From NCBI GenBank assembly GCA_045837725.1, contig JBEWZL010000036.1, forward strand, positions 62,001-126,000: a stretch of DNA of 64,000 nt, in the 5' to 3' direction. A program made the translations under genes and the position numbers. The notes beneath the pieces were generated by a model. That model was not told the origin of the DNA, did no database searches, and saw only the letters and a program-made list of their open reading frames with translations. The DNA is from Vermamoeba vermiformis. Lineage: Eukaryota. Below, one piece after another: positions 1 to 19,808 of the stretch. Each line of letters opens with the position of its first letter. Within the stretch, counting starts at the first letter, position 1.

Positions 1-1708
1 TCAAAGCGCAGCTCGGGCGCGAGATTGAGAGCGGAGATGCGCAACAGACACTGCGCCAGGGCTACTTCAATGTGCTCACGGGGGCCTGTCTCGCGCTGGG
101 CTTCAGATTTGCAGGCACCGCGCACAGTGCCGCCAAGCTAGTGTTGACGCAATATTTGCAGTATTTCATCAAGCTGCAAAGAAGCAAATTTGACCGCGCA
201 GACAAGAACATGCTGGAGTACTGCATGAACAGCGTGGCCCTGGCACTGAGCATGGTGATGAGTGGCACTGGACACCTCGGCACATTTAAGTACGGCCCCT
301 CATTGCCTTATTTGGTAATTGCTGACTTCTATTTTTAGAATTCTCCGCACACTGCGCAAGCGAGTCTCAGTGGATGTGACGTACGGCAATCACATGGCAC
401 TAAATATGGCAATCGGATTTCTATTTTTGGGTGGTGGTCGCTACACGCTGGACACCTCCGCGCAGTCCATCGCTTTCCTTTTGTGTGCTGTTTATCCGCG
501 CTTCCCGCAGAACTGTCGCGACAATCGCTATCACCTGCAAGCTTTGCGGCACTTGTACGCACTGGCTGCTGTGCCACGGTACGTCAATGCCTAAATTAGG
601 AATACGCATCTAACGGAGTCTATTTTTAGCTGCATTGAAGTGCGCGATGTTGACACGCAACGACCGGTCTACGTGCCACTGAACATTCACTTCAGACCTG
701 ACTTTGACACTTCGGAGCATGTCATTCAGTACGTATCTCACTTTGACACGTGTCATCAGTTCACTGAACCTCTCGCTTGACAGATTGACAGCGCCGTGTC
801 TGTTGCCACCAGTGCAGTGGATTACAAAAATAGAACTCGCCACGCCACGTTACTGGTCACTGACACTGTCACGTGATCGTCACGCTGCAACACACCCTTT
901 GACACTTGTCTGCAGTGACACCTGTCAGCGCAGTCCCGTGCTGCACGTCAAGCGCAAGTCAGCGTATCTCGATTACGATCTCGATCCCGACGGCGTCAAG
1001 TCCCTCAGTGCACGGCCCTACTCGCAGACACTGCGACTTGACAACTTGACAGCTGTCAGCACCGTGCTCGATGCTAAAAATAGACGCGAGTTGTTGCTGG
1101 CATTCTCCGCTGACCCGCACGTGCTCGCATTCGCCACGCACTTCGCATCGGGCAATGACACGCGTCAAGTAGCATTCTGCACGGCAGTGTTGCTGGAGTG
1201 CCTGTCAGCGGAAAAATTGACGATGATTGACACGTACTTGACACTTGACCGTGTCGTGCAGTGTTTGACACGTGACACCGCGCCGAGTGCGTCCGAGCTG
1301 TGGAATGTCAAACTGATCTGTCAACTGTACACCCGCACTGACTGGCCCTGGTTGACATCTGACACGTCACCGCTGCTGCAACTAGACTACTTGACATCTG
1401 TCAAACTGAAGCTCGAGAGCTACTTCGAAGATTTGACTCGCCGCGCTGGTCTGTCGCGTGATGATTGGCTGGAACTTGCCAAAAAAGGCTATCTTTCTTC
1501 GCGCGAGAAACAGCGCCACGTGATGCAGCTGCAGCACTACTACGAAGTGCCACCACCTGTCATTCTGAAACACGTGCTGGACCTGCCGCGCCCTGATTCA
1601 GCCGCGCATTGGACACTATTTTTAGCACCACTCGCTCAATTCAGTGAACTGCGCCAGCACGACGCGAGCACAGTGCTATTTTTAGCTCGTGTGCTGAGCA
1701 GCTTGTAA
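1..1708 (+). CDS. ANAPC1: Anaphase-promoting complex subunit 1, C-terminal part (5' end outside the window; introns ~290-338, ~579-629, ~729-783)
   Basis: Spliced translation contains APC1 PC-repeat/C-terminal motifs: LSMVMSGTGHL, YGNHMALNMAIGFLFLGGGRYTL, AVYPRFP..DNRYHLQALRHLYALA, APCLLP; stop at 1706-1708. Confidence 0.93.
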
Positions 1709-1895
1709 ATACACTTCCTTATTTGTAAAATTACCCCCGATCACCACTAGGTGTCAGATGATTGGTCCGTTGACTACTATAGCAGCGACGTTGACAGCAC
1801 TGTCAATCACGTGACTGTCACTCGATCACGTGCGCAACAAGTAGCGAGCATCATTTTAAATTTCACTTGCAGCAGAGCACAGCGCCCATGCCACG

Positions 1896-3124
1896 ATGCT
1901 CAAGCTGAATATCGGAGGCGTGAAGATCAATACCGCGCAACAAGTCGTGCTGCGTACTGGCCAGAATTACTTCACTAAGCTGCTCGCTGGTCAGATCCCT
2001 GTTCTCAGAGGTAATTAACAGCTGCAATTGCTGTATTAACACGTCATTATGGTTCTCTCGATCGTTATATTCATGTGGCTAATTTTTCATAATTTTGCTG
2101 CCAGATGACGAGGACTACATCTTCATAGATCGCAACGGCAAGATATTTCAAGTGATTCTCGATTATTTGAGGTACAACGCTGTATTACAGCCACAATTAT
2201 ATGCTAACCAGTGCTCAGACTCGGCAGCCTGTTCGTGCCCAGCGAGATGAGTGTCACGCAGGTGCGCGAAGAGCTGCTCTATTATTATCCGCACGACGCA
2301 CTGCCCGTCGAATTGGCGCGCAAAGAGAGCGAAGTGAACGAACTCACACCGCGCACGACTGGCGTGTACTGGCGCAAGAAGAGCGAGCTCAATCACGTGA
2401 TCAAACTGCGCCTCATTTGGTTCACTGCGGCAGGAGAGATCTGCTTTGTGGACGACAACAAGCTGCTGCAGGGTCGCATGGTACGTGATTCACTGAAGCA
2501 GTGATTAAGTAGGTTCACTGAACTGTTCTCACCGTGTATCTCCCCACAGACTCCAGTGCCACATCAACCAGGCTGGCTCGCATTTGATTGGTCGAACGAT
2601 CAGTCGCGCGTGTTGGCGTACATCAACCAGGGCACGCTGTACCACCGTTTTGAGACGCACTGGTTCATGAACAGCTCACCTCCGCTGCACACCGAGTACC
2701 GCATGGGTGGCACCGTACTGACGCACTATCCCGGACCACGCTATCAACCGCGCACGGTGGATCGATTCCGCGTCACTTCGGAGAATTTGCTGCAAGTCCA
2801 GTACGCGGCGAGTGAAGAGCCCGTGGAGTTCGGGTACGAGACTGAGTGGCGCGAGGGACTCTGCTACATTGCCGTGCCGCAGTTCTATCAGGTACGTGTG
2901 CACTCTGCGTTAAATACGTTAATTAACGTCGATCGATCCAGTACCGCGACATCTACGCCTTCTCGGGCAAGGAGCACGTGACACGCACAACCACACTGCG
3001 CGGGCTGGTGTGTGGCGCACTGATCGTGTGGCTCAATCTGCGCGAGTGTCACGCGGTCTGTCCGGGCAGAGTTATTCCGCCTGAGACTGACATTGCCACG
3101 GCTGCTGACTTCTTGCGTCCTTGA
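1896..3124 (+). CDS. KCTD/T1-type BTB/POZ domain protein with an unrecognised C-terminal region (about 5 exons)
   Basis: Exons translate to MLKLNIGGVKINT...NYFTKLLAGQIPVLRD / DEDYIFIDRNGKIFQVILDYLR / LGSLFVP...REELLYY, the KCTD BTB signature (LNVGG, FIDRDG..F..ILDYLR). Start codon uncertain. Confidence 0.8.
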
Positions 3125-3247
3125 TCACCATGTTCATTGCCATATTTGGTCATCGACTGTTGTTGTGCTTCACTGAAACAAGTGTCAATACGTGTAACTC
3201 TAATGTAAATAAATCTGTCTATTCTGCTCCTCGCGCGTCAATTCATC

Positions 3248-3315
3248 TAGCAGGGCACGAAAGAATATACCAGGGCATCACATAATATCTACCAGGGCAG
3301 TTGATCTACCAGGGC
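3248..3315 (+). promoter_or_regulatory. Four direct repeats of TA(C/G)CAGGGC upstream of BCAT; candidate promoter element
   Basis: Copies at ~3248, 3268, 3290 and 3307 in the intergenic region, 140-200 bp before the BCAT ATG. Confidence 0.4.
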
Positions 3316-3450
3316 TCGAGTGCCTCTTCGTCAAACAATGAAAATTCGTGCGACAAATGCTGCGTGTTATTGCGCGCTTGATTTGCTTCAGTGTTCTTTG
3401 TGTTCATATCGCAGAGCCCACTAGTGGTCCAATAATATATACGTCACATT

Positions 3451-5004
3451 ATGCAGGCTGTAACACGATTAATGCGCGCTGGTTTGTTCGCGCCCAAAAA
3501 AAGCGCATCAGCAGCGAAAGTTGGTGCTTTGTTGACCCTTCGTGTTAACAACTATGCTACTAAATCATTTGCGGTACGAACTATTATAAGGGCAATAATA
3601 ATCAATAATCATTGAAATATTAAAAATATTTTCTCAATAATAATTAATTATCTGAACGTATTTTAACCCCTATTTGTACAGCGAAGTGAATTACAAGTAG
3701 AAAAGACTAAGAACCCCACACCTAAATTGCCTAACGATCAACTTGTCTTCGGCAAGACATTTACATCTCACATGTTGTCGATCGAGTGGCACGAGAAGTC
3801 AGGCTGGGCTGCCCCTAAGATTCATCCTTACAGACCTCTCGTTCTCGATCCTTCGTGCTCTGTATTCCACTACGCTATTGAGGTACGTACCAGATCCCGA
3901 TCAGCAGCTCCAGAAAACAAACTCTATGAGCAGCCACTAATGAGGCATACTATGCATAGTGCTTCGAAGGTACCAAGGCCTACAAAGACAAAGAAGGACG
4001 CGTGCGCATGTTCCGCCCGATGGACAATGTGAACAGATTGGCCATCTCCTCCAGCCGCCTCGCTCTGCCTTCATTCGACAAGACTGAACTGCTCGAGTGC
4101 ATCAAAGAACTCGTGCGCGTAGATTCGGATTATATACCTACTGGCAAGGGCTACTCGCTCTATTTGAGACCTACTTTTATCGGCACTACGGTACGTGACT
4201 GGATCTACTCCCCATTAATATTATCATTATTGTTGTTGTTATATTACAATACCCTCTACGAGCATATCTATCGTATACACCACTAACACCGCACAGCCCG
4301 CCCTCGGAGTGCACGCAGCACGCGATGCGCTGTTGTACGTGATCATGTGTCCAGTCGGGCCCTATTACCCCACTGGCTTCAAGCCCGTCTCGCTCTACGC
4401 CGATGAGAAGCACGTGCGCGCATGGCCTGGTGGCACTGGTGCCTACAAGATGGGCGGCAACTACGCCCCAGGCATTCTACCAGCGCTGGAAGTCGCCGAG
4501 AAAGGTTACAGTCAGATCTTGTGGCTGCTCGACGATCAAGTGACGGAAGTGGGCACGATGAACATGTTCGTGTACTGGATCAACGAGCAGGGCCAGAAAG
4601 AGCTCATCACGGCACCCCTCGACGGCACCATTTTGACAGGTGTCACCAGAGCGTGCATTCTCGACCTCGGTCGTCAGTGGGGCGAGTTCAAAGTGACTGA
4701 AGCCAAGTTCACCATGACGCAACTCGCGCGTGCCATTGAAGAGGGGCGCGTGATTGAAGCATTCGGTGCTGGTACCGCGGCCATTGTGTCGCCGATCAAG
4801 GCCATTCACTACCGCGGCAAGGACTACCCTGTGCCCCTCGGCAAGAACGGTGCCAATGCCGGTGAATTGACGACACGACTATTGAACACTATTCAGTCGA
4901 TTCAGGTACGTAAATGTGACATCACGTGCGCGTGGATGTGCTCGAACTGATCTGTTTTCTTGCAGTACGGAGAGGTGCCACACCCTTGGTCGATCGTCAT
5001 CTAA
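3451..5004 (+). CDS. BCAT: Branched-chain amino acid aminotransferase, mitochondrial-type
   Basis: N-terminus MQAVTRLMRAGLF... resembles a transit peptide; class IV aminotransferase motifs LVFGKTFTSHML, FHYAIECFEG, SLYLRPTFIG, YKMGGNY (PLP lysine), EVGTMN, ILTGVTR, FGAGTAA. Confidence 0.96.
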
Positions 5005-5200
5005 GCTACTTGTGAATATATCTTCAGCATTCAGTTGCTATGCAGCCAAATAAACCTTCTCGAATATTTTTGCATGGTGCACAAAAAAAAAAAAAGAAAA
5101 AAAAATGGCAAGTGAAAAAATAATCAAGTGACTTTCACGAACAGATCCAGCGTTTGTATTATTTTCATTAGTCCAAGTACTATACACATAACAAGACAAC

Positions 5201-5867
5201 ATGTCCGCTCCTGAAGGTGATTATGCTCGTGGTGAAGCCCTCTTCAAGGGTCGATGCGCTCAATGCCACACCGCTAACAAGGTAACGTTACTCTACACTG
5301 TCATTGATATAAATGACACGCAAAAATATTGTCGCAATAATAGATATATATTCCGGCTTCTCTAAAGCTTGCTAACAAACATCGTGGATCGCAATAATTA
5401 ATTAATAAATAATTCTTATTTGTTTACAATAAGCAGCTACTTACATAACAAGCACTATAATAAATACAATAAATACCGTTGCTAATCAAGTCATCTCGTG
5501 CAGGGTGGTCCTCACAAGCAAGGTCCCAATCTCTACGGCTTGTTCGGCCGCACTGCCGGTACTGTTGCTGGCTACAAGTACTCGCCCGCCAACCAAACCT
5601 CTGGTACGTGCCGATTTAATACTGCCCCGTATATATATGCACTCCTCATCGCGTGACGCTGCAATTTCTTGCAAAGATCTGTTTAACGGTCAGATCTCGT
5701 ATTAACCGTAATATGCAGGCATCACTTGGACTGAAGAGACCTTGTTCGAGTACTTGCTCAACCCCAAGAAGTATATTCCTAAGACTAAGATGAACTTCCC
5801 TGGCTTCAAGAGCGAACAAGACCGCGCTGATGTGATCGTTTACTTGAAGAAGGAAACCAGCGAATAA
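5201..5867 (+). CDS. CYCS: Cytochrome c (3 exons; missed by the ORF track)
   Basis: [27 protein letters not shown] / [16 protein letters not shown]... / [39 protein letters not shown]; CxxCH heme motif and axial Met present. Confidence 0.97.
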
Positions 5868-6278
5868 GAGCTTATTAATTATATATCTTGATATTAACAG
5901 CTTATATAACGATCATGTTATGATGACTAGTTTTGAAGGCTGATAATAAAACGAAATATACAAATCCAGTTTACTGTGCCGCTTGATACCGCGAGCCATA
6001 CACAACATTTCAATATCTATGTCGCTAGATATATATACTAGTCGTATCATTCCGAGTGCAAGTCGTGCTGAAGACACGTCAGATCTAGCCGGAGATTTTT
6101 GTTCCAACAAAATGGCTCAAAATTCAAATTGAATTTTTAATTGCAAACAAATACAGTACAACACCAACACTATGATATCCTTTATAACACTTGTCTAATG
6201 ATTGCAGACTACAATATTCAATTCAACTCATTTTAAATCTGTCGGTTTTTCCTTAACTTTTTATTTACGCTGAAGTAG

Positions 6279-6932
6279 AGGCTTGGAAGGAAGCATTTAG
6301 CTTATTCGACAAGGACGGCGATGGCCACATTAGCTCTGATGAGCTCGGCACTGTTATGCGAGCACTAGGTAATTTCCTTCAATTATTATTAATTTTTTAT
6401 TTGATCACCCAAAAAAAATATTTATTTAACGAGGAATTATTCCAAACACTCGGCCAGCACGTGAATGCAATTATTAAATGCACTTTGCGCAGGACAAAGC
6501 CCCACACAAGCTGAAGTGCAAGAAATCATCAAAGAAGTTGGCGCCGAGTCGATCGACTTTGCGCAGTTTTCCACAGTGATGCAGAAACACAAGAAGACCA
6601 CTGACCCCGAGAAGGAGTTGCGGTGAGTAGTGTCGATGTGCTTGTGCGCGGTGTGACTGACAGTGCGTGGCCAGCGAGGCGTTCAAAGTGTTCGACAAGG
6701 AGGGCAAGGGCGTGATTTCCACGAGTGAAATGAAGACAGTGCTCACTTCCATGGGCGAGAAGCTCAGCGAAGAGGAGGTGAGGGACTATAGGCACTGCTG
6801 TATATATGTGTGTGCCTCGTGTACTGACTCGTCGTGCAGGTCGATGGCATATTGCAGAGCGCGGACAAGGACGGCAAGATCCACTTGGACGAGTTCATTG
6901 AACTGCTCTTGAAGCCGACCAAGACCAAGTAA
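6279..6932 (+). CDS. Calmodulin-like / myosin-light-chain-like EF-hand protein (first exon not identified)
   Basis: [38 protein letters not shown]..., [37 protein letters not shown]2 and EF4 loops are degenerate or shortened. Confidence 0.85.
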
Positions 6933-7130
6933 TCATCTCATTGCCTAATTAGGCAACTGTGTGCCACCCACGTGATATTATCAGAGTACACCTCGTGTGA
7001 CTATAAATAGAACAGTGCTATAATAAAACATTTGTACAATTACGAGCTGGTGGCCTACAACTCGATCAGTGCCGTCCTCTGTTTGACACGTGTCACTCCG
7101 CGCTACACAAACGAAGTACTTTACATCAGT

Positions 7131-9362
7131 TTACAAGATTTGTTTCGACGAGCGCTTCTTGTCGTGCTTGTGCTCTTTGCTGTGCAAGTCGCGCTCAGAA
7201 CTCGCCGAGTGTGACAGCGAGAGATTGGACAGCGAGTGACTGGACAGCGAGTGATCAATGTCACCGCGAGCACGGCGAATCAAGATCTGTGCGGCAGGAC
7301 ACGAGGTCTTTTTGAGGGGTTCAGCGATGGTCTTGTACAGCGTGAAGCCGACTTTCAAGAAGAATTCAACGCCCTGTCCGTCAAAACAGAGCGTGGCGCA
7401 GTCTTGGCCGTGGTAGTCGGCCACTGTTGACACGTGTCAGAAGCGAGTGTCAAACACTGACGCGCACGGTACGTACCTGTGAACACGTGCGACAAGAGGT
7501 GGCGTCCAATGCCTTTACTTTGCAGTTCTTTATCGACGGCCAAGTAGCTCAGCACCCAACAGTTGTCGGGCAGGTCGTGTTGATAGGTCTTTTCGAAGAA
7601 TTCTGCGAACTGATGGATCTTCATGCCCGTCTTGGGACCTATCTTACCAAAGTTCTGCATGCCCACTGAAGTCACGTGTCAGTGGAGAATTGAGGCTATA
7701 AATAGCTCTTACCGCGAATGATTTGTGCAAATGACGGCCGTAGTGAGCGGTCTGGTGGGAACCACAATGCAGCTGCCTAATTTGGGCATGAGGTCACGTG
7801 ATTGCAATGACGTTCACTTACCTGCAATTGTCCGCTCGGAGAGTATCGCCCCCACAAATTATTTCCTTTTTTGGCACAATATCTAACACTGAGATCGAAT
7901 GAATTAGCACGTGATCAGTTGGTTCACTGAATGCACTCACAGGTAGTTCAGCACCACATTGCGCACCAGTTTTTGACGTTTTTCCGCGTCTTTCGTGAAC
8001 AAAAATGTCATTCGGGGCTCATCGCGCAGTTCACGTGCCAGCAAGTCAAGTGTCGCGTCAACATCGCGTTTGTTCAACTGTCGTGACAGCCCATCTGTTG
8101 ACAGGTGTCAGTGCCAGTCACGTGACAGCAGTGCAGACCTACCTTTGACACTGTCAGCCAACTTCTCAAAGGTCTGTTGTTTGAGTGCTTTGGCCTTCTC
8201 GGACTGCAGCGTGTACTGGCGGAAGAATTCGTGTTCTAAGATCTGATCTATATTTGGCCGCTGCAAGGGATCGATCACCATCATGTATTGCACTAATTTC
8301 AGAATGTGCACGCGATCCTGTGTGAAGTGAGTGGAGGGTTGAGTTTGACACGTGTCACATGTCGTACCTTGGGGAAGTACTTGAGCAGCGTGTCATTGAG
8401 TCGATCAGCCCCGCCCTGGTCGATGATGGCGTTGAAGTCAATCTCGTCGAGTGGCAGCACGTGACTGGTGCTCACTTCAAACACGATGCAGGCCAGCGAC
8501 CAGATGTCAGCCTTGGTGTTGTGCGACTGTTTGCGATGCACTTCTGGCGCCATGTAGTGGTACGTGCCCGAGTGATCCTGTCAACTGCGTGTCAACCGCG
8601 CTGGTCTGTGTTTGACACGTGTCGTACCTGTTTGCTGGTCTTGCTCGAGGTCGCGAGTCCAAAGTCACCAATCTTAACGTCGTCGTGCGCGGTGAGAAAG
8701 ATGTTCTCGCTCTTCAAGTCGCGGTGCATCACGCGCAGTTGGTGCACGGCTTTGAGGCCCTTGCACAGCTCCACGATCCACTTCTCAACGAGCTGGAGGA
8801 GTCAGTTAAACACCGTCCCTGTAGGTCTATATTCAGCAACACTACGCACCACGAGTGGTATCAGTTCGAGTTCGCTCGACGACTCTTGACTCGTGCTGTG
8901 TTCGCGCGCACCAAGCAGTCGATCCCAGATGGACCCTCCCGCACAGAACTCCATCACGAGATTGAGGTCGTATATGGACAGTCCTGTATTGTACACTCGT
9001 AAATATTGGCAATTGAAATTAAAGCACTGCCAATAACAGATTCAAATTAAATGCGAATATTAACCGCCGTACCGTCCTCTTGTCGTATCTGCAGGAACAG
9101 GTCTTCGTAGCGCGTAACAAATTCGCTGCTGAATCGGGCCAAAGAAATAGCCTGGAATAAATACCAACGTCACTGTCCGATCTGCCGAAATGGAATATAT
9201 TCGTTTGATACTCACCTCTTGCAGTCCTTGATTGGCCTCATCGATGCTAATGTAGGTCTTCTTCTTGCACACGAACAGCTGCTGATCCTCTTTGCGCTTG
9301 ACGAGCAGTGCTGCACCTTCACCGCCCTGCCCGAGCAGTTTGACGGTCTCGTAGCGGTCCAT
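7131..9362 (-). CDS. NEK-like Ser/Thr protein kinase fused to a C-terminal GNAT-family acetyltransferase
   Basis: Kinase motifs LGQGGEG, VMEFCAGG, HRDLKSENIFL, KIGDFG, GTYHYMAPE, DIWSL. In-frame spliced continuation to AAALWFPP...LSYLAVDKELQSKGIGRHLL (GNAT motif A)...VEFFLKVGF. Confidence 0.88.
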
Positions 9363-9789
9363 GGCGTGGATGAATAGGGACTGGTTGTATATATATATGC
9401 AGCTGTGGTAAATAAATAGGTACTTTGAATTAATATGTGGCCCCCTGTAATGAAACTGAAATTAAGTTCCGAAAATTAACGAGGATTGCCAGGCACAATT
9501 GAATCACGTGATTTCCTTTTATGGCGAATTAATCCGCTCAATGGTCATGCCACTCCCGCTGTGCAGGTCAGTGAGATTAGCAGAACTCAAAGGGAAATTT
9601 CAGTGCAGTGACGCACGAAACAAGCGGACAGAGGAGTATGATAGAGGTGAATAATGACACAGTGGTACTTGAGAACACAAACACAGGTCAGCGGTGCTAA
9701 TAATGTAACAAGGTTTATATATATGCAGCACTACGATCAACACTGGCACTGCTCGGAGCGGTGGTCAGATCTGGCAGCATTAATTGTGC

Positions 9790-10524
9790 TTATTTCTTGC
9801 CTGTCAAATGCGTCCATCAGTTCCGTGCTCACCAACACTATGTATCTTAAATATATCTAATACGCACCCTTGAGCAGGTCCTTCATAGACTGCGACTCGG
9901 CGGCTTCAAGAGGAGTGAGTCCATCCGGACCCTTGACATTGGTGCTCGCTCCCTTGCTCAACAAGAATGCAACTGCTTCTTCGTGGCCTTCATATACAGC
10001 AGCTAATAGAGGGGTGATGCCAAAGCCGTCCTTGACTTCAATCTAAGTGCATCTAGTGGTCAGTACACGTCTAATTAACATATTTTGTTTGACTTACTTT
10101 AGCACCCTTGGCGAGCAACAATTTAATAACTTCGACTATGGTATACACAAGGCGTTAGTAACAGCGCAACAGTAATGCTAGGAGTGCAGCAGTTGACGAG
10201 ATATTGTCAATAATAAAAATATTTTAATTTTCAAGTCAAATAGGCAAAATTTGTTTAGTCTTATTTGTTGGAAAATTAGCATGCATTATAGCTGCTATAA
10301 ATTATACATAAATCTTTTGAATAAAGGGTTGGCTAGGCATGGAAAAAATTCAAATTACCTTGACCGAAATCTGCAGCGTAGTGGAGAGGAGTTCTCTTCT
10401 TAACGGTGTTGTCGGGCTTATTGAGATCGATCTTCTCTTTTTCAATGTAGTCTTGCACGCCTTTCAAATCTCCTGTTTTAATGGCCCATTGAAAAGAACC
10501 TTCCTTTGAACGAGTATCGGCCAT
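9790..10524 (-). CDS. MTPN: Myotrophin / V-1 ankyrin-repeat capping-protein regulator
   Basis: [64 protein letters not shown] closely follows myotrophin. A short last exon is inferred; the alternative stop is at 9857. Confidence 0.9.
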
Positions 10525-10663
10525 ATTGCTTATATATGACTAATCTAGGTGAATAGTGGTTACAAATATGAATTACAAATACAAACTAGTGGGTCCTGGT
10601 TTATTTCATTGAATTCGGTCAATTTTTTTCATATCAATCACAGTGCACTACACGCGACCAGAC

Positions 10664-12646
10664 ATGCATCGAGTGCGCGTCATCACCAATCATCTGGTAG
10701 ACACCGACACTAGTGCTGTAAATATAGAGCGTGAGTGCTACTCGTAAAATACGGAACTAGATCTCATACTGTTTTGCTTTGTGCAGGAAATCCGACGAGT
10801 GAAGTCGATGTTGAGCAAATTAAGGCCAAATATCCCTCGCGTAAGTACATTCCAATTAGTTCATGATATGCGAGCTCATAAACGAGCAGCCTCTTCGGAG
10901 TATTTGAGTTTTGACGAGCTGTTGAGCCCGCGCGACAAACAAATCCGCTACACAGTGCGTCAATTCGCGCAACAAGAGATTTCCCCTGTAGTACGTGCTT
11001 ATTTGTTAATTTACACGAATATCGCGCTCATTGTCATGATTAACTCGCAGATCAACGACTTTTACGAGCGCGCTGAGTTCCCACAAGCAGTTGTTGCCAA
11101 ATTTGGCAAGTTAAAGCTGATTGGCTTGGACATTAAAGGCTATGGCTGTCCAGTACGCACAGAGCAGCTCTCTGTTTGACACGTGTCACATGTGACTGAC
11201 TTTGTACCAGGAGTTGACCGCTGTTCAGAACGGCCTTATGGCACTCGAATTGGCACGTGTAAGGTAAACAATTGCCTAATTAGGAAATGAGATCCATCTA
11301 ACTTCGACTAGCGTGGGACTCGCGACATTTTGCGGCATTTTGAACAACATTTCAATGCTGGCTATTTACAAGTGCGGTACGTAGCATAATTCACTGAACA
11401 AGAGGTGACACGTGTCAAACACTGACCTTTAACACTTTCTTGATCAGGCAGCGAAGAACAGAAGCAGAAGTACTTGCCTAAATTAGCAAGTCTAGAACTG
11501 ATTGGCTGTTTTGGTCTGACAGAGCCCAATGCAGGCACGTGACACTTGTATTTCTCCGCTGACACTCGCTGACCCTTGCATATACAGGCAGTGACGCGTC
11601 AAATCTGCAAATGACCGCGCGACCGCACGTCAATGCCCAGGGCCAGTCCGGGTGGCTGCTCAATGGTGAAAAGCGCTGGATTGGCAATGGCACGCACGCA
11701 GATGTGCTGATCATTTGGGCTAAAAATAGCACCACCCATCAGGTCAATGGATTCATCGTCAAGCGCGGTGTGTCAGGGCTCACAACTGCAAAGATCGAGA
11801 ACAAAGTCGCCATGCGAGAAGTGCAAAAGTAAGTGACAGAATTCGTGCAATACTCGGTTTGACACGTGTCATTTGCAGCGCACACATGACATTCCAAGAC
11901 GTGTTCGTGCCTGACACGCAAAGATTGCCAAAAGCGGAGAACTTTGCGAGTGGACCCAATCAGTGCCTCTTTTTGACACGTGTCATTGCAGGCTGGATTG
12001 CCGTGGGCTGTGCGATGGGGGCATATGACACGTGTCTGCAATATGTCAAAGAGCGCACTCAGTTCGGTGCTCCTCTTGCGAGCTTTCAAGTAAGTCACGT
12101 GCTATTGCTGCAAGTTACTGATTGACACGTGTCACACAGATCATTCAAGATCGCTTGGTGCGCATGTTAGGCACTATAAATAGCCTCTTGTTGGTAAGTG
12201 TGCCGCTCTATCATTAGACCCTGTATTTGACCACGTGACAGTTGATGTGGCGTGTGTCACGCCTGTACGACACGCACTATGACACGTGTCAATCCAAGAC
12301 GCGTGCCACTGATCCTATTTCAATCGGCAAAGTCTCGCTAGCCAAGGTACGTCGCTGTCATTTGTACGTCAGTGTTTGACACGTGTCACATCAGAGTCAC
12401 TGCACGTCGCGCGCACGAGAAGTGTTGCAAATGGCGCGCGAAGTGATGGGCGGCAATGGACTCGTGACCGACTATCACGTGGGCAAACAGTTCGTGGACC
12501 TCGAGGCCGTGCACACCTTTGAGGGCAGTTATGACGTCAACACGCTGTAAGTAGCTCGCCTTATTTGGCAATGTTCTCGATACTGACTGGTCATTCACAG
12601 AATCACTGCGCGAGAAGTGACTGGCCAATCAGCGTTCAAGAAGTGA
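10664..12646 (+). CDS. Peroxisomal short-chain acyl-CoA oxidase/dehydrogenase (ACX4-like, GCDH-related ACAD fold)
   Basis: N-terminal [11 protein letters not shown] (PTS2-like); [56 protein letters not shown]. Confidence 0.88.
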
Positions 12647-12925
12647 GCTATAATAAGCACCGCTGTAATATATATGCATCGTAAACACTCTTTATTCTGT
12701 TCGTGTCTTGTGTGCTGATCAAATACGTCGTGCATCATAATCACTATTGCGTGGTACAGCGTTAGTTCGTAGTGCAATGTGAGCACGTGACTTGAGGTGA
12801 AATTTCGCGGTTTTTAAATATGCGATTCGAGCTAGCGTGTTATTCGGCCCAGTCAGCGGACAATTAACACCAAGCATTGCTTGATATTCAATCAAACGCT
12901 ATCATCCAGTCAATACATATCCCGC

Positions 12926-15167
12926 ATGCTCCACAGGCTAACTCAATTAGTGCAGGTCAGATCCAATTGGTTTACAATCAAAATGAAAATTTAATTCTTA
13001 ATTTGCAATATTATTTCCCTATTATTCTTGATGCAATATTGTGTCCCTAAAAACATTCAGACCTTCTTATAATTTTGATAAATAATGGCGCTCGAAAAAA
13101 ATTTCAAAATAATAAACCCGTTGATTTCAGCGCACTGCAATACGCACGGCACGTGACAGCAGGCTAAATATAGTCGCAACTCCTGCGCGCAATCATTGCA
13201 CCTCTTCACGCACACGAAGCGCCGCGCGTTCGAGAACTAAAAATATGTTTGCCTCAATTAGGCAAGACTGTGCGGCACGTGATCGACGACAGTACTCCAG
13301 CGGTAAGTGTTTCCTAATTAGGCAATGCATTGCTGATCCTCATTGCAGCGAGTGACCCTCACATGCGCATTCGCAACTTGGAGAAGGTGGATGTGGATTC
13401 ACTGCACGCACACATGCAACAACTCGATCCCGTGGAGGTGAGTGCACTCCGAGGTCGGTGCTATATTTAGACTGACACGTGACAGCCAAAAGAGGCCACA
13501 GAACTGCAAGAGATCAAAGACCCCGCTCTCATCTTCGAGCGCGTGTGGCGCAAACTGGAAGCTAAATATAGCCGCGACATGATGCGATTTCCCAAAGAGA
13601 TGATCTTTCTCATGGGTACGTCACCTTGACACCTGTCATCACGATAGTTGCACTGTGACATTGACACGTGTCATTTGCAGGTGCGCCAGGCTCAGGTAAA
13701 GGCACGAACACGCCGTTCATTCTGCGCGAGAGGTAATTCACTGAACGACAAGTGACACGTGTCACACGCCGTACAGGACTGACAGCGCTATTTTTAGAGG
13801 CATCACCGCCCCGCCCATAGTGATGAGTGACTTGCTGACCGGTGCCGAGGCTGAACGACTCAAAGCTGGCGGTAATGATCTGGTCTATTTATAGTGCAGA
13901 CACGTAATCTCATTTCCTTATTTAGCAATGCTGGTGCCCGATGCCATTGTAGTGGAGATTTTCATGGAAAAACTGTTGCAACCAATCTACGAGAACGGCG
14001 TGGTGATCGATGGATTCCCGCGCACTCCTATTCAGGTACGTCACGTGCTCAGATCTATTTTTAGCATTGACACGTGTCAGGTCGAAGTGATCAAGTTGCT
14101 GCACGACAAGATGAAAGAATTGCAAAAAGAATTCGCAAACACGCCAGCGGAAAAATACATGCGCCGTCCAATGTTCCGCATCACCGTGCTGTTCGTGGAT
14201 GGTAAGTGTCAAACACAGCCCCGCGCGTGACTGACAGGTGTCAGACTTTGTGTCGGTGCAGCGTCAAATGCAGCGCGGACAGATGGTGAAGCAGCACAAC
14301 GAGAAGGTACTGCGCACGGGCATGGGCCAGCTCGTCACTGAGCGCGAGACTGACAAGAGCGAAGAGGTACGCTGTGATTGGCTGCGGCTATAATTAGACA
14401 CTGATCACGTGACACTGTCAGGCTGCACGAGCACGGTACGCGGTGTTCGCCAAGCACTACGACACGCTGACCTCGCTGAAGAAGTACTTCAAGTTCAACA
14501 TCATCAACGCGAGTGGCAGCATTGAGGAGGTGGAGCGCTCCATCATCAAAGAGTTCCGCTATCAGAGCGAGTTCGAGCTCGGAGAAGAGGCCTATGCTGT
14601 CGTCATGAAATTTCCCACGGTAATGTCACTGTGCTGTGCTGTGTTTGACACGTGTCACTAACTGACCTGCAGAGCACTGAAATGGGCAAGCACGCCAGAC
14701 AGGAGCTCGTGCGGAGATTAGGTGAGCTCTAGATCGATCGATCGGTGCGATGTGTAGCTGTCTCACTGTTCTATTTTTAGACGCCTATGCGAGTGATCAC
14801 CGCGGTCTGTTCCACCAAGTCAGCTACACACTCGAGCGCGAATTCTTGCCCGCCATTCGTCGTCATCAACTTGCGGGACGATGTTTCGTGCGCACCACTA
14901 GCCCGTAAGTGTATTGCCGAATTAGGAATGTCACTGACCAATGCTCGCAGACTATTTAAAGACACACTGGCCGTTGAAATGGCGATCGATCTGCTGTCCG
15001 AGCGCGGCTACGCAGTGGTGTGGGACCAACAAATCGAACACGTGCCGCACATGGCCAATCCCGTCACAGCACCGTTCAACAACTACTACCGCACACTCGA
15101 CGAGGGCATTTGCACCCACGTGTTCACGATTGAATGGAAGAAGCCAGTGATTCGCAACGACGAATAA
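12926..15167 (+). CDS. Adenylate/nucleoside monophosphate kinase-like protein with N- and C-terminal extensions
   Basis: EIKDPALIFERVW...RFPKEMIFLMGAPGSGKGT (P-loop), VIDGFPRTPIQ; Arg-rich presequence-like N-terminus. The start exon is inferred. Confidence 0.85.
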
Positions 15168-15330
15168 GACCTGTAGTTGCCGTGTACCATTAATATCTAT
15201 TCTAGCCATGCACGTGTACATGTGGTGTTCAATAATAGCACAGTAAATGCATCGAAAGAATATTGTTTATAGAGCTTTGTACAGTGATTGATTACAACAA
15301 TAAATAAGAAGTGTTCAGTGTGACAGTTGT

Positions 15331-18239
15331 CTACTGCTCATTGACAGGTGTCACTTCCACGTGTGCAGTGCTGTCGTGGCCAGGTGTCACTTCAGTCTCC
15401 GCAGACACGTGACTGACAGGTGTCTCCACGTGACTTTCACTGTGCACCACAATGGACGGTGTTTCCTGTGCAGGGTGTTCTTCAGCACGTGGGCTAGTTT
15501 TGGGTTCATTTGCAGCTGTCGTGCTGGCTGCAAAGATGTTCTGGAAATTCTGCGCGGGTCGAGGACGATTAGCAGGGATCGATGCCGTGGCTTGAGGCTC
15601 GGTGGCACTGCTGTCAAATGAGCTGCGTGAGGACTGCGGCGAGTTCGGCGAGGGCTGTCGCTCTTCGTGGCTGTGTTCGCTGTGTGACAAGGACTCGGGC
15701 TCAGCGCGCACAGTGAGATTGTTGTTGTTGCTGCCGTGTGCTCCCTCACCACGCTTCAGTTGAGGCAAGGCACGTGGTTTCTTCTCAGTGGGTGGACGGG
15801 GCGGGGCTGTGGAAGTGCGAGTGGCGCGGTGATCGAAGACATTGCCTGAACTCGAGCCTGTGCTGCCCAGTGCAGGACGTGAAGGCGGCGAGGGAGAGGT
15901 CGATGAAGGCAGCACAACACTGCTGGGGGCTGATGAGCCAGGCTCAGCGTGCACTTGTTGTGGCGAGTGCGGTGCGACGGAGATGGGTGCTGTGGAGCCA
16001 GGCTGCGCACTCGACACACTGCTCGGCTCTGAGGCGTGTGTGACGGGCACTGGACTGGACTCACGTGCCTTCTTCATGGCCGCCAGAGCCAGGTCTAGGT
16101 CAGCAGTGTAGGGCTCGAATATCTGCGGTGCGTGTTGAATCACAAAGTTGATGGCGGTGCGGGGCTCGAATGGATCTGCAGTGCTCAAGTCAACGCTCTT
16201 CGGGTACAAGATGTTCGGCGCTACTACTGTGGACAGCGCGACAGCACTCATCTTGTTCTGCGCCACGTGTTCAGTGACTCTGCAAACAACAATTAGTTCA
16301 AGTGACATGTTTGACACGTGTCATTTGCCCTACTTGACCAACAAGAGCATGACACGGTGCAGCACGAGTCTGTTGGGCAGTGGCAGTTGTTCGACCACTT
16401 TCTGCAGCTGTTCGATTTTCGTCTGTTCATTAGCCACGTCTGCACGATGTCAATTAGAAATCACTTTCCAAATATGGTAATGCAGTGTACGTACTATTCA
16501 CGGCAACTACAGCGTCGTATAAAGTAGTCGGAATAACAGGCTCGGGCAGTTCGCGCAAAAACATCTTGAGAAGTGCCGAGACCAAGTGCGGATCGGTCAC
16601 GTGACTGAAGTCCATGTTGCCTTCCTCGCAGTTGGCGCGCAGTGTCATCAACTCGGGCAGGGTCGGAGAGCGGCGGAATATGCCTTCCTCGTCCATGCCG
16701 TGCTGCTCTAAATATAGCACCGCTTGTTCGACGAGCAGCGGGTAGGGCAAGTTGTCCTGCAGACAGACCTGAGTGAGGGGCACGCCGAACACTTTGATGC
16801 CGCGCACTTGAGCACCGGGCTGCAGACTCTGTCTCTCGCGCATCAATCGGATGCTCTCGCGCTTGTCACGTGCTTCATTCGCGTGACGTTTGAACTCGTA
16901 CAGCGAGGGCAAGATCTCGTTCAAAAACTTGGCGCCGAACGAATAAAACTTGCGCTGAAGTTCGAGGTACTCCACTAGTGCTTCGAGTGCTTTGTAGTCC
17001 GCGACTGCATTGTAGTACTGCAGTGGTCATGATGATGCATTAGTTACTGCACGAGCATGAGTACAAAAGAAGGTACGTACCTTGATAGCTTCTACTGCAT
17101 CGACGTCCACTTTGTCAAAATTAGCTTGAGCTTCTTGCAGTCCTTGTTCAGCCTGGCTCGTGTTAGTAACCACGTGATTGCCAAATTAGGAAAATTCATG
17201 ACACACCTCTTTGATTTGTTTCTCTTTAGCCTTCTTATTGTTACGAACACTATTTAACTCGCTCGTAGCGCTCTCTAGTCGCGATTTAGCCTTTTCATGA
17301 CGACTCTTCTCGCTCTGTAATAAACTGCTATTAGAACCAAAAATCAAATTGAGGATCCGGCAGTTCAGCTGACCTTAGCTTCCTTGACTTCATTGTTTAA
17401 AATAGCTCGCAAAGGCTCTTCAACTTTTACAGGAATAGCATTTTGCTGCAGTGTAATACAGTATCAGTATTATCGCGTGACATTGGTGACCGTTTGACAA
17501 CTACGTACCATATCTTGTCGAATCTCTTGTAACAACTTGTGGAATTCAGACAATTTGAATAAACAGCCGGCTACATATGTACAAAATCAGTATTGATGCA
17601 TTCGTAATGTCGATCGGATTGCATCCGCAAAGTTATCGGCAGGTGCTTCAAATTACCTAGCAAGAAATTCTTAAGCTCCTCTTTGCTCGTAGTACACACG
17701 TCATTCACTACTGGTTCAAATTTTTCTTCGTTTTCGAAAGCGTCTGCGTGGATTAACAAGTTAACTTCTTAACATTCACAAAAGATTTCAATGCGGGAAT
17801 AATGATCGAGAAGATAGAACAATTTGAATTAATAAGAGCAAGGTCAAATTAAATACAATTGATTGATAATTTTGGCACCCATTGAAGTTGCCAATAAAAA
17901 AGATTTTTTGAATTTAATGTCGATTATATTTGGAATTTAATTAGACATACGCTTAACAGCCTTCTCCATCTTCGCAAAATCCTTTGCTATCACTTTCAAT
18001 CGCTCGCTGAAATTTTCGGTGGCAGTAACTTGATCTTCCAGTTCAGGATTCACTTGGATCGCACTCGTCGTACCTACGACTGGTGAGACAATATTACTAT
18101 CACTATCATTACCCTCTCGCGGTGATTTGTCTTTAGATTTTGGTTTGAGTATATTCATGATGCTCGATCTGCTCTTTTCTTTTTTAATGGCCGGTGCGGG
18201 CTCTGAGGCCACAGTATTGTTATTATTATTCTCTTCCAT
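15331..18239 (-). CDS. BAR-like helical domain + RhoGAP + Ser/Pro-rich disordered tail
   Basis: RhoGAP motifs VFGVPL...GMDEEGIFRRSP (Arg finger), DPHLVSALLKMFLRELPEPVIP, NKMSAVALSTVVAPNIL; N-terminal helical exons resemble a BAR domain. Confidence 0.88.
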
Positions 18240-18384
18240 GTTGCTTATAGGAGCTCAGCTTAACATATAGATTGGATAACAACGCCAATTTTCTGACGCT
18301 CCTGTGAAATTTCACTTGCCGCCGAGCAAAAGTAACCGTTGGGAAGAATTTTTTAAAACATTTTTATTGATTGGAAGCAACACC

Positions 18385-19623: not shown

Positions 19624-19808
19624 AATAGGTCCGAAGCTAATTCATTGAGTCTTAAGTGACTCAATCAAATGTAGTCAGCTAGTAAATGTATGTAATTAAG
19701 AATCACAGACACGTGATCAGAAAAAAATTGTCGGCATATTGTGCGGCCATCAATCAATTTGAATCGAATCTTTCTTGAACGACTCGAGCACAATAAGAAT
19801 ATTTAAAT

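Follow-up and report, generated by a model that had tools for sequence, protein, structure and literature searches.

The first 17 kb of the window, the whole 64,000-nucleotide stretch of Vermamoeba vermiformis DNA analysed here, carry several classes of short palindromic motif in large excess over chance. The motifs have a fixed geometry, are centred on the introns of particular genes irrespective of gene strand, and are conserved in a related organism. As the relative has kept them, the motifs probably function as DNA elements and do not simply result from where they lie on the chromosome. We give an even chance to the prediction, drawn from sequence, that dimeric factors bind them at the DNA level, as sites under selection that are crowded into introns and overlap splice signals. 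The original prediction, that such sites fill the gene bodies of this region, is confirmed as an observation and partly supported in its interpretation as a whole.

Motif excess and distribution among genes

Motif counts in positions 1-17200 were compared with 300 dinucleotide-preserving shuffles of the same sequence, and no shuffle reached the observed count of any of six motifs. There are 18 copies of GACACGTGTC (shuffle mean 0.04) with one in 30001-64000, 23 of TGACA[CG][CG]TGTCA (0.01) with none, 18 of CTAWWWWTAG (0.12) with none, 13 of CCWWWWWWGG (0.43) with three, 8 of TTCASTGAA (0.22) with two, and 63 of CACGTG (8.35) with 32. These counts bear out both the co-occurrence of several motif classes in introns of about 50 nt and in exons over 1-17 kb, and the near absence of the long motifs from 30-64 kb. 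Between the two regions lie a single GACACGTGTC at 29122, CTAWWWWTAG at 20445 and TTCASTGAA at 24918, and CCTAATTAGG is found at three places in the window, all on the left (6944, 11275 and 13313). The plain E-box TCACGTGA, previously listed as a feature of the left block, is enriched window-wide, with 8 copies on the left (0.57 expected) and 9 on the right (0.79 expected), the latter mostly exonic. Motif-rich stretches have a G+C content of 0.50-0.54 against about 0.44, and exon CpG observed/expected ratios of 1.05-1.14 against 0.82-1.0 in most other genes.

Motifs are present in 29 of the 32 modelled introns of four intron-dense genes (APC1, a kinase, an acyl-CoA dehydrogenase [ACAD] paralogue and an adenylate-kinase-domain gene), and in only one of 35 beyond 30 kb (Fisher p 1.7e-14), where introns had been said to lack them. 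Thirteen of the GACACGTGTC copies in 1-17200 are in modelled introns, three are exonic and two are in unassigned sequence, with densities of 4.6 per kb of intron and 0.31 per kb of exon. The pattern within 1-17 kb is gene by gene and mainly intronic with no smooth positional gradient, so that the proposed fading along the window is not seen.

Pfam searches on single exons confirmed APC1, Nup107 (Nup84/107 family), kinase, GNAT, adenylate kinase, RhoGAP and acyl-CoA dehydrogenase. The 3' part of APC1 (1-1708, + strand; PC_rep, APC1_3rd, APC1_C) has motifs in all three introns (290-338, 579-629, 729-783), and TGACA half-sites crowd its last exon (784-1705), which also has MEF2-like sites at 1074, 1616 and 1676. 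The next gene (1888-3124, +) is of an unnamed family; its N-terminus is putatively BTB/T1-like by eye, and a Pfam search with exon 2505-2891 gave no match. It lacks the TALE palindrome and has TTCACTGAA at 2489 and 2514 in the intron starting at 2481, with a third copy at 3169, past the stop codon. Three motif-poor genes follow on the plus strand (3472-6932): BCAT (3472-5004), cytochrome c (about 5201-5868) and a calmodulin-like gene (about 6270-6932). Their introns have greater length and A+T content; of the six modelled, none has a long motif and one has a 7-nt E-box (TCACGTG). Spliced RNA joints are seen at 3572/3681, 5279/5502, 5602/5718, 6366/6491, 6621/6674 and 6775/6838. These three and an ankyrin-like gene, also motif-poor, are interspersed among motif-rich genes on one unbroken 11.6-kb DNA contig.

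The protein kinase gene, whose C-terminal part is GNAT-like (7131-9362, - strand; Pkinase, Acetyltransf_1), has motifs in seven of ten modelled introns, the exceptions being the three 5'-most (8793-8849, 8984-9072, 9152-9215). The diverged, GCDH-like ACAD paralogue (10790-12646, +; Acyl-CoA_dh_1) has them in all nine modelled introns, and two further 5' introns read by eye (10841-10889, 10991-11050) have none; intron 11535-11587 is of GC-AG type. That AT-rich first introns lack motifs therefore holds for the 5'-proximal introns of both genes as regards the motifs; some of these introns are not AT-rich. A canonical intronless GCDH gene (46027-47193, +), 36% identical to the paralogue (135 of 371 aligned residues), serves as an internal control and lacks TALE and MADS motifs, with an exonic GTCACGTGAC at 47064. 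In the adenylate-kinase-domain gene (13240-15167, +; ADK) motifs occupy all ten modelled introns and also the first intron, 13303-13348 (TTCCTAATTAGG). The RhoGAP gene (15331-17500, -; RhoGAP) has a TALE palindrome in the intron around 16312 and a CArG-like site in intron 16440-16494.

Outside the left block, TTGACACGTG plus CTAAAAATAG lie upstream of a Lys/Glu-rich ORF (20394-20454), a motif pair is intergenic (49921-49959), and introns 23258-23309, 29083-29138 and 50550-50626 bear motifs.

Geometry and conservation of the sites

The spacing of the core site is fixed. TGACA-N2-TGTCA occurs 24 times on the left, all other spacings from 0 to 10 at most three times each, and the everted order (TGTCA before TGACA) at most once at any of these spacings and never at N2. 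The spacers are CG (17), GG (4), CC (3), GC (1) and TC (1). Seven ATTGCCTAATTAGGCAA-like 17-mers form one family (D9), and the full 22-bp form GTGTTTGACAC/GTGTCAAACAC is a foldback. The core architecture is that of ATTGACAGCTGTCAAT, described as the canonical DNA for the TGIF1 (TALE homeodomain) crystal structure (PMC6158717), and the copies here are predicted sites of that kind. The remaining sites match MADS boxes of MEF2 type, CTAAAAATAG being given as the highest-affinity 10-mer within YTAW4TAR (PMC7470950), and of SRF/Mcm1 type, TTACCTAATTAGGTAA being the Mcm1 site used in yeast work (PMC5052057); binding to them is likewise predicted. This geometry and these consensus matches support the view that the motifs are of transcription-factor type.

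Conservation was assessed with a single comparator, a metagenome contig (L007) that is 72-78% identical and syntenic over 11443-16963. It keeps the motifs, whereas the intron sequence around them has diverged. For 15 pairs of orthologous introns the median length of the longest word in common is 11 nt, against 6 nt for 210 pairs that are not orthologous (p 1.2e-5). Motif type is kept in six of nine shared introns for TALE sites, four of five for MEF2, three of four for CArG and one of one for TTC-N3-GAA, although such retention alone exceeds the base rate among these introns only a little because the motif vocabulary is common; E-boxes inside introns are kept in none of four. Kept motifs are often shifted in distance, and spacers change (CG to GG, CC or AG) with half-sites constant. 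Upstream of the adenylate-kinase-domain gene an E-box (12784) and a MEF2-like site (13164) are also kept.

Six of eight long exonic motifs are without change in L007: TGACACGTGTCA at 11974-11985, read as Leu-Thr-Arg-Val, two further TALE-type sites (12027-12036, 12280-12291) and three MEF2-type sites (11720-11729, 12174-12183, 13562-13571), all letter-perfect. Copies of TGACAGGTGTCA at 15342 and 15414 lie in the repetitive C-terminal coding tail of the RhoGAP gene, a tail not conserved in L007. Of the 45 exonic third codon positions that fall in motifs, 40 (0.889) match L007, compared with 0.613 of the 1120 elsewhere (p 1e-4), behaviour that would be expected of DNA recognised by proteins, as had been proposed. 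Purifying selection is a simpler explanation of these unchanged synonymous sites than the biased conversion suggested earlier.

The motifs also shape coding sequence, as claimed for APC1. In its last exon Leu-Thr is written TTGACA in 7 of 10 pairs (0.63 expected; 307 codons), and the dipeptide itself makes up 10 of 306 adjacent codon pairs, versus 54 in 9351 codons elsewhere. The ACAD gene has three exonic TALE sites; compared with the intronless paralogue, two replace codons with no change in length and the third is in a 12-residue insertion.

Predicted function and alternative explanations

We propose that, in five or six intron-dense genes of the left 17 kb, the internal introns and a few codons carry selected recognition sites in double-stranded DNA for dimeric, sequence-specific proteins. 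These genes seem weakly expressed, on read depth that is low and biased. The main site, TTGACA-CG-TGTCAA, has inverted TGACA half-sites exactly 2 bp apart, arranged as in TALE-homeodomain (TGIF/MEIS-type) sites, and is accompanied by MADS boxes of MEF2 type (GCTA-W4-TAGC) and SRF/Mcm1 type (TTGCC-W6-GGCAA) and by a TTC-N3-GAA palindrome. Since the genes stand only a few hundred bases apart and their introns measure about 50 nt, the sites may have been packed into the only free DNA. They are fused with splice signals, such that GTAAGT or GTACGT runs into CACGTG, the branch site yTGAC is also a half-site and several 3' ends are CTATTTTTAG, and they spill into exons wherever codons permit. TALE and MADS proteins may bind these sites. 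Instead of marking chromosomal position, the sites could place these genes under joint control, for example as part of a stage-specific programme. Against this reading, classical enhancers are rarely found in nearly all internal introns yet absent from the 5'-most ones.

The motifs could instead be conserved cores of palindromic modules of about 20-50 nt, copied around the genome and making or remodelling introns in the manner of introners or mini-foldbacks, with the dense genes as burst targets and any binding function secondary or absent. Similarity does reach past the motif core in three families, over 30 nt at up to 87% (D3), 34 nt at 88% (D13) and 36 nt at 72% (D18). D13 is a composite module, TAATTCACTGAAC-N7-GTGACACGTGTCA, at an intron 5' end (11387-11420, +) with a second, equally spaced copy at 13734-13767, and D18 connects intron 14202-14244 with kinase intron 7424-7476. 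Other genomic contigs of sequencing run X1 share at least 20 nt with motif sites and end or join there (loose ends 7079, 11406, 11428, 12119, 12134 and 16308), and the extended motif is therefore dispersed in the genome. These families and the X1 sharing exceed what binding sites need and point to copying, as may the foldback form. Codon-by-codon reading of the alignment shows that intron presence differs from L007 at 6 of 21 positions compared. Four introns of the window are precisely absent from L007 (11535-11587 [+], 12194-12241, 14202-14244 and 14722-14780), all with motif-like sequence, and L007 has two of its own near window positions 11636 and 11664. However, no two different introns align over their full length, and the longest exact word common to different introns of the window is 18 nt. 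Inspection by eye of the six lineage-specific introns showed neither terminal repeats nor target-site duplications of a consistent kind, a TTAG repeat being present only at 14722-14780. Copying alone also leaves unexplained the constancy of just the motif in orthologous introns and at synonymous sites, and gain and loss are indistinguishable from the window and L007 without an outgroup. We consider this origin rather unlikely.

The extended site GTTTGACACGTGTCAY (TTGACACGTG) is on the plus strand 17 times and on the minus strand three times regardless of gene strand (binomial p 0.0026), and TTCACTGAA is split 8 to 3. Relative to transcription, TTGACACGTG is 11 sense and 3 antisense in plus-strand genes and sense in none of five minus-gene contexts (Fisher p 0.005), a test chosen post hoc with evidence from two minus-strand genes only. 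This bias is not predicted by a simple cis-regulatory model. With the location of the sites in a block of neighbouring genes, it fits strand-polar structural elements of the chromosome that, instead of switching transcription, would act domain-wide to block replication, cohesin-type loop extrusion or polymerases, or to give them direction. Such a role is improbable, as flank polarity is reversed at the L007 orthologue of site 12124 and motif-poor genes lie within the block; yeast Mcm1 and Cbf1 sites are, moreover, described as poor polymerase roadblocks (PMC5052057).

The intron motifs overlap the 5' splice site, branch site and 3' splice site, and branch-like words are CTGAC or TTGAC in left introns and CTAAC in right ones. 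Compared with shuffled controls, left introns have a slight folding advantage (mean z -0.38, versus +0.48 on the right). A function in pre-mRNA, as hairpins or splicing-factor sites helping to define very short introns, would account for this, but appears quite improbable. The motifs probably act at the DNA rather than the RNA level, because sites occur in both orientations to transcription, the extended motif being antisense in minus-strand genes, and also in exons, in 3' flank (7085) and in the conserved upstream DNA (12784, 13164), and because folding is weak with no common hairpin and an Rfam search gave no family match. Motif position also shifts between orthologous introns, and all types are palindromic with fixed half-site spacing, the mark of dimers on double-stranded DNA.

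A neutral bias that depends on position, arising because sites are shielded from mutation or because gene conversion is biased near a chromosome landmark, was among the interpretations put forward with the original prediction. Although motif-rich stretches are higher in G+C and CpG and the dense genes adjoin, it is very improbable. Motif-poor genes are interposed in the intron-centred pattern, motif-bearing introns recur outside the block, compositional bias would not yield four unrelated consensus sites of 10-12 bp, and fixed dimer geometry with exact-site and synonymous conservation at high divergence fits selection better.

That the left part is mis-joined or foreign, the refutation envisaged at the outset, is hardly credible, as no supporting evidence was found, L007 comes from an unrelated metagenome, splice-site style is uniform throughout the window, and one X1 DNA contig spans 1-7584 across both kinds of gene. 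Further X1 contigs tile to 20000 (uncovered: 7585-7646, 8526-8575, 9324-9663 and 12499-13896; overlapping only at junctions 17062-17083 and 17993-18022), a tiling that is not independent since X1 is possibly the source sample. These Logan contigs break at motif sites, as assembly graphs do at repeated words of about 20-30 nt.

Likeness to known systems

The core sites share with TALE palindromes (TGIF/MEIS, TGACAGCTGTCA; TGIF1 DNA as described in PMC6158717) the inverted TGACA half-sites, the 2-bp spacer and TT/AA-type flanks, with the spacer varying and the half-sites kept. They differ in preferring a CG spacer, and thereby being also an E-box, in their asymmetric extension, and in that the candidate sites occur about once per intron in gene bodies, not in promoters or enhancers. 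The MEF2/Rlm1 consensus YTAW4TAR (PMC7470950) and the SRF/Mcm1 consensus CC(W)6GG or TTACCTAATTAGGTAA (PMC5052057) are matched letter-perfectly, among others by CTAAAAATAG and CCTAATTAGG with palindromic flanks, and both are kept in the relative. Unlike known MADS-box sites, several copies double as polypyrimidine tract and 3' splice site (CTATTTTTAG at 329, 620, 13788 and 14771) and some are in frame inside exons.

Introners and introner-like elements occur in Micromonas, Aureococcus, dinoflagellates and fungi; a literature search found none in amoebozoans. The window resembles them in its lineage-specific introns, in sequence common to unrelated introns and in clustering in certain genes, but has only modules of 10-36 nt in varying order and orientation in place of full-length near-identical copies, lacks consistent terminal repeats or target duplications by eye, and has motifs apparently kept by selection after divergence. 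C. elegans introns carry non-coding signals of two kinds, PATC periodic A/T clusters and, grouped on chromosome IV, Ruby-motif 21U-RNA units. There, as here, the introns of a gene class or chromosomal block are full of a short DNA signal in either gene orientation, but the sequences of the window are unrelated, show no 10-bp periodicity or sign of small-RNA units, and fit the consensus of DNA sites that dimeric transcription factors use. Rickettsia palindromic elements, mobile insertions of 100-150 bp in frame in bacterial protein genes, likewise show palindromic DNA tolerated in ORFs and visible in protein, whereas most exonic ACAD TALE sites here replace codons. The 'duons' of Stergachis et al. 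2013 are reportedly transcription-factor sites in coding exons that constrain codon choice. The exonic motifs of the window share with them synonymous-site conservation and skewed codon choice, but are perfect 10-12-bp palindromes at high local density that raise the frequency of particular dipeptides.

Gene models and distribution of the motifs

The window comes from the nuclear genome of a compact eukaryote; its introns are about 45-75 nt long and start with GTAAGT or GTACGT. An exon of its BCAT gene is 97% identical to a metatranscriptome protein, with dictyostelids as the best named relatives (65%), and an exon of its Nup107 gene has a single close relative (94%) among 5.8 billion proteins, the next match being to a fish (26%). 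Gene models were made with a small splice-aware dynamic programme and checked against RNA joints and single-exon Pfam matches (APC1, protein kinase, GNAT, adenylate kinase, RhoGAP, Nup84/107 and acyl-CoA dehydrogenase); they are rough, in that APC1 is fused with the next gene and two splice sites of the acyl-CoA dehydrogenase paralogue (ACAD) are a few bases off. A single contig of the DNA run X1 covers 1-7584 and takes in motif-rich and motif-poor genes, although X1 is perhaps the source sample and hence not independent. Other X1 contigs tile to 20000 with gaps, none of those listed lying at 7585-7646, 8526-8575, 9324-9663 or 12499-13896, and overlaps are seen at 17062-17083 and 17993-18022 only.

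A strand-symmetric k-mer contrast between the left region (1-17200) and the right region (30001-64000) yields GACACGTGTC and its extensions, CTATTTTTAG and TTGCCTAATT as left-specific words. There are 18 copies of GACACGTGTC on the left and one on the right (shuffle mean 0.04), and the counts are 23 and 0 for TGACA[CG][CG]TGTCA (0.01), 18 and 0 for the MEF2-type CTAWWWWTAG (0.12), 13 and 3 for the SRF/Mcm1-type CCWWWWWWGG (0.43), and 8 and 2 for TTCASTGAA (0.22). None of 300 dinucleotide-preserving shuffles of the left region reached the observed counts, and the motif richness claimed for this part of the window is thus real, standing far above both the shuffles and the right region. The E-box, which the original prediction had listed among the left-hand motifs, is indeed enriched, but it is not specific to the left: the palindrome TCACGTGA occurs 8 times there (0.57 expected) and 9 times on the right (0.79 expected), and is a window-wide feature separate from the left-hand pattern. 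Seven of the nine right-hand copies lie in modelled exons, one of them inside the reading frame of the canonical GCDH gene. We note also that (G)TCACGTGA(C) occurs about ten times as often as expected in 30001-64000, for example at 34026, 36954, 43898, 44390, 44795, 47064 and 63663.

The motifs are concentrated in the introns of particular genes. GACACGTGTC is found in 1-17200 in introns (13 copies), exons (3) and unassigned DNA (2), which makes 4.6 per kb in introns and 0.31 per kb in exons. A high density of introns (9-10 per 420-545 codons) and of motifs coincides in four genes: APC1, a kinase gene on the minus strand (7131-9362), the diverged GCDH-like paralogue ACAD (about 10.8-12.65 kb) and an adenylate-kinase-domain gene (about 13.2-15.2 kb). 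Of their 32 modelled introns, 29 carry one or more of five motif types, compared with 3 of the 13 other introns on the left, 2 of 11 at 17.2-30 kb, and a single one of 35 past 30 kb (Fisher p 1.7e-14 for 29/32 against 1/35). The motif-free introns among the 32 are the three 5'-most of the kinase gene, and two 5' ACAD introns missed by the model are also motif-free by eye. No regular, nucleosome-like spacing of sites was seen by eye, the distances between sites ranging from 52 to 578 nt and exons from 46 to 241 nt.

Motif-poor genes (BCAT, cytochrome c, calmodulin-like and ankyrin-like) are interspersed among the dense ones, and motif-bearing introns also lie outside them at 23258-23309, 29083-29138 and 50550-50626, so that the pattern is gene by gene and centred on introns. 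The proposed fade along the chromosome is not borne out, and the same distribution speaks against the position-dependent process put forward with it. A positional compositional domain, such as an isochore or a biased-conversion tract, is rejected because sequence classes are not affected alike, a long motif being present in none of the six BCAT and calmodulin-like introns (one holds a 7-nt E-box) and a motif of any type in few of the other left introns. RNA depth is higher for cytochrome c, the calmodulin-like gene and BCAT than for the dense genes, but this contrast is only a hint, as the raw RNA runs are from a strain 1-5% different with less than 1x over the dense genes, and contig depths are poor measures. 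The raw reads of X21 and X23, two RNA runs with the same species label, are 1-5% off the window over 1-20000, with most in the 95-99% class, and therefore belong to a different strain or a closely related species.

Several other loci are of note. An open frame of 711 codons at 20455-22587 is made of 57-nt (19-codon) Lys/Glu/Ala-rich tandem units and has a strong purine skew (GC skew +0.25, AT skew +0.42), with one TTGACACGTG and one CTAAAAATAG directly upstream. Two or three tandem paralogues at 54376-55099, 55374-56136 and about 56594-57001 encode a small protein with the N-terminus MEHDEI..LDQK, a common acidic/Ser tract and a C-terminal Cys pattern. Two convergent paralogous genes of about 550 codons each (38607-40281, plus strand; 40370-42196, minus strand) have a membrane-like N-terminal half and share an enzyme-like C-terminal half.

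Conservation in a related contig and effects on proteins

When metagenomes were scanned for pairs of motif copies lying 80-110 nt apart, at least 118 stretches came back; among the matches listed, 117 of 118 are tandem or dispersed repeats that belong to other organisms and have no relation to the window, and only L007 is related. This 5596-nt contig is syntenic, in reverse complement, with 11443-16963 and shares 72-78% of its nucleotides with it. Exon third positions are identical at 0.613 in a global alignment, showing that neutral sites are far diverged. Six of eight long exonic motifs (at 11720, 11974, 12027, 12174, 12280 and 13562) are nonetheless letter-perfect in L007 and the other two carry one and two changes; third positions within exonic motifs are identical in 40 of 45 cases (0.889) as against 0.613 outside (p 1e-4).

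Shared introns are scrambled outside their motifs, and that at 12347-12394, for example, keeps AGTGTTTGACACGTGTCAC only. The motif type is kept in 6 of 9 shared introns for TALE, 4 of 5 for MEF2, 3 of 4 for CArG and the single case for TTC-N3-GAA, with the distance often shifted and the spacer changed, and intronic E-boxes are kept in none of four; this tally leaves out the row for 11535, where L007 has no intron. Because a motif vocabulary is common to these introns, we compared the longest shared word in 15 orthologous intron pairs (median 11 nt) with that in 210 non-orthologous pairs (6 nt; Mann-Whitney p 1.2e-5). The MEF2-type exonic sites at 11720, 12174 and 13562 are unchanged, and upstream of the adenylate-kinase-domain gene an E-box (12784) and a MEF2-like site (13164) are kept, the latter with one change that still fits the consensus; in the first intron of this gene a CCTAATTAGG box is kept. 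MADS-type sites thus appear to be conserved beyond the neutral background. We note that one shared intron is 55 nt long in the window and 192 nt, AT-rich and microsatellite-like, in L007.

The motif feature is real and conserved, and it exceeds chance by far. The pattern in L007 is that expected of purifying selection on short DNA sites, and neither a mutational by-product nor a decaying repeat would be expected to yield it.

The suggestion that motifs shape protein segments holds at least for APC1 and ACAD. In ACAD, TTGACACGTGTCA encodes Leu-Thr-Arg-Val where canonical GCDH has Ser-Ala-Arg-Tyr at the same length, a second site encodes Asp-Thr-Cys, and a third lies within a 12-residue insertion. 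The last APC1 exon has 307 codons and 10 Leu-Thr pairs, while other genes have 54 such pairs in 9351 codons (p 3e-5); seven of the ten are written TTGACA, the number expected from codon usage being about 0.6 (p 4e-7). The canonical GCDH gene (46027-47193) is 36% identical to the ACAD paralogue. This family is represented in the window by an intronless copy, the canonical gene, and a copy with about 11 introns (10790-12646); retrocopying could account for the intronless gene, or the pair could be old paralogues. At 15340-15440 lies the C-terminal coding tail of RhoGAP, which has repeated GAAGTGACACCTG-like units (peptide EVTP) and two TGACAGGTGTCA sites; it is rearranged by indels in L007, and exonic motif copies can thus arise through small duplications.

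Proposed identity of the sites and level of recognition

The core site has a fixed geometry. TGACA-N2-TGTCA occurs 24 times on the left and never on the right, other spacings from 0 to 10 occur at most three times each, and the everted order (TGTCA before TGACA) is absent at N2 and seen no more than once at each other spacing in the same range. The spacer letters are CG (17), GG or CC (7), GC (1) and TC (1). The half-sites are more constrained than the spacer, which differs in L007 at 11860 (CG to GG), 13627 (CC to CG) and 13662 (CG to AG), with TGACA and TGTCA kept or one letter different between the orthologues at these sites. Among the other left-hand words, TTCACTGAA matches TTC-N3-GAA, which we take to be a STAT-type pattern. 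Splice signals and motifs overlap: GTAAGT or GTACGT continues into CACGTG, CTATTTTTAG is the 3' end of four introns, and the branch-like words differ between the dense genes (CTGAC or TTGAC) and the right (CTAAC).

The canonical DNA for the TALE homeodomain of TGIF1 is ATTGACAGCTGTCAAT (PMC6158717), and the left core site has the same architecture, with inverted TGACA half-sites at a fixed 2-bp spacing. By this geometry and the half-site constraint, the core sites are best explained as candidate TALE-homeodomain dimer sites. CTAAAAATAG is the best MEF2 10-mer within YTAW4TAR (PMC7470950), and seven ATTGCCTAATTAGGCAA-like 17-mers resemble TTACCTAATTAGGTAA, the Mcm1 site used in PMC5052057. Matches to these MADS consensuses (YTAW4TAR and CC(W)6GG) are above chance, at 18 against 0.12 and 13 against 0.43 expected. 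Dimer geometry, consensus matches and conservation in L007 together lend support to the earlier idea of protein-bound, transcription-factor-like sites, as judged from sequence.

Recognition at the DNA rather than the RNA level is favoured, because the extended site is antisense in both minus-strand genes, sites are also present in exons, one 3' flank and upstream DNA, motif positions slide within orthologous introns, and the core has the geometry of dimer binding to duplex DNA. A structured RNA element is rejected: left introns fold only slightly better than shuffles (mean z -0.38, and +0.48 on the right), a common hairpin was not found among them, no Rfam family matches in the window, and the antisense copies also count against it.

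Intron turnover, polarity and comparison with known systems

Intron presence differs between the window and L007 at 6 of 21 positions. Four introns (11535-11587, 12194-12241, 14202-14244 and 14722-14780) are precisely absent from L007, and two are present only in L007, near window positions 11636 and 11664 on its reverse complement. For a relative with 0.613 third-codon identity this turnover is unusually fast. At the borders of the six lineage-specific introns a 4-nt repeat (TTAG) was seen by eye at 14722-14780 only. The intron at 11535-11587 is a GC-AG intron starting GCACGT, the first 9 letters of which resemble the first 8 of the next exon (GCAGTGAC).

Within the window the longest exact word common to different introns is 18 nt, and the best families of extended similarity between motif copies (D3, D13 and D18) span 30-36 nt at 72-88% identity. 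Many other X1 contigs end or join at motif sites, and this, with the 30-36-nt shared copies, points to modules dispersed in the genome; perhaps such modules were copied around it.

The asymmetric extended site GTTTGACACGTGTCAY lies 17 times on the plus strand and three times on the minus strand. Relative to transcription the ratio is 11:3 in plus-strand genes and 0:5 in minus-gene contexts (p 0.005, in a test chosen after the data were seen and with evidence from two minus-strand genes), and its flank is reversed in L007 at one orthologous site. We note that all five TTGACACGTG sites in minus-strand gene contexts between 743 and 29120 point as do those in plus-strand genes, and that TTCACTGAA has a strand split of 8:3.

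The best explanation, to which we give an even chance, is that these are selected candidate TALE-homeodomain and MADS dimer sites, packed into the introns and some of the codons of a particular gene set. Their role (which could be stage-specific control, a gene-body mark or a polar structural one) and their mode of spread are points on which we infer. A simple regulatory reading does not cover the intron turnover, the shared 30-36-nt copies, the polarity or the sparing of 5'-most introns, and near-universal sites in internal introns with the 5'-most spared are unusual for enhancers. A more far-reaching reading is a gene-body code of this lineage: in a block of neighbouring genes, nearly all internal introns would be kept or created as carriers of high-affinity TALE and MADS dimer sites, fused to splice signals, written into codons and, in the extended form, oriented one way on the chromosome regardless of gene direction, as domain marking (for example a polar barrier, or an orientation signal for replication, loop extrusion or polymerases) or through intron gain or survival coupled to factor binding. 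We regard this as unlikely; if true, it would be an undescribed kind of chromosome-domain marking, or a coupling of intron gain or survival to binding. Strand polarity, were it genome-wide, would suggest that such sites act at the scale of the chromosome, a function for which they are not known.

If the selected sites are bound, they would show to what extent a compact genome can place regulatory DNA inside transcribed sequence, with introns of about 50 nt that are little beyond splice signals and transcription-factor sites, and proteins bent to carry sites. They would then provide a clean natural system for asking why introns are kept, how binding sites and splice signals share letters, and whether intron gain and loss (as at the 6 of 21 positions) is linked to regulatory content.

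A literature search of main texts found no description of motif-filled introns and nothing relevant on introners in amoebozoans, and the 12-mer motif was listed only as a primer in two Ebola papers. Exonic transcription-factor sites, or dual-use codons, are marked by synonymous constraint and skewed codon choice, and both are seen in the left exonic motifs. Introners and introner-like elements are near-identical full-length introns, which is not so among the introns of the window, but their presence or absence between close relatives is matched by the comparison with L007.
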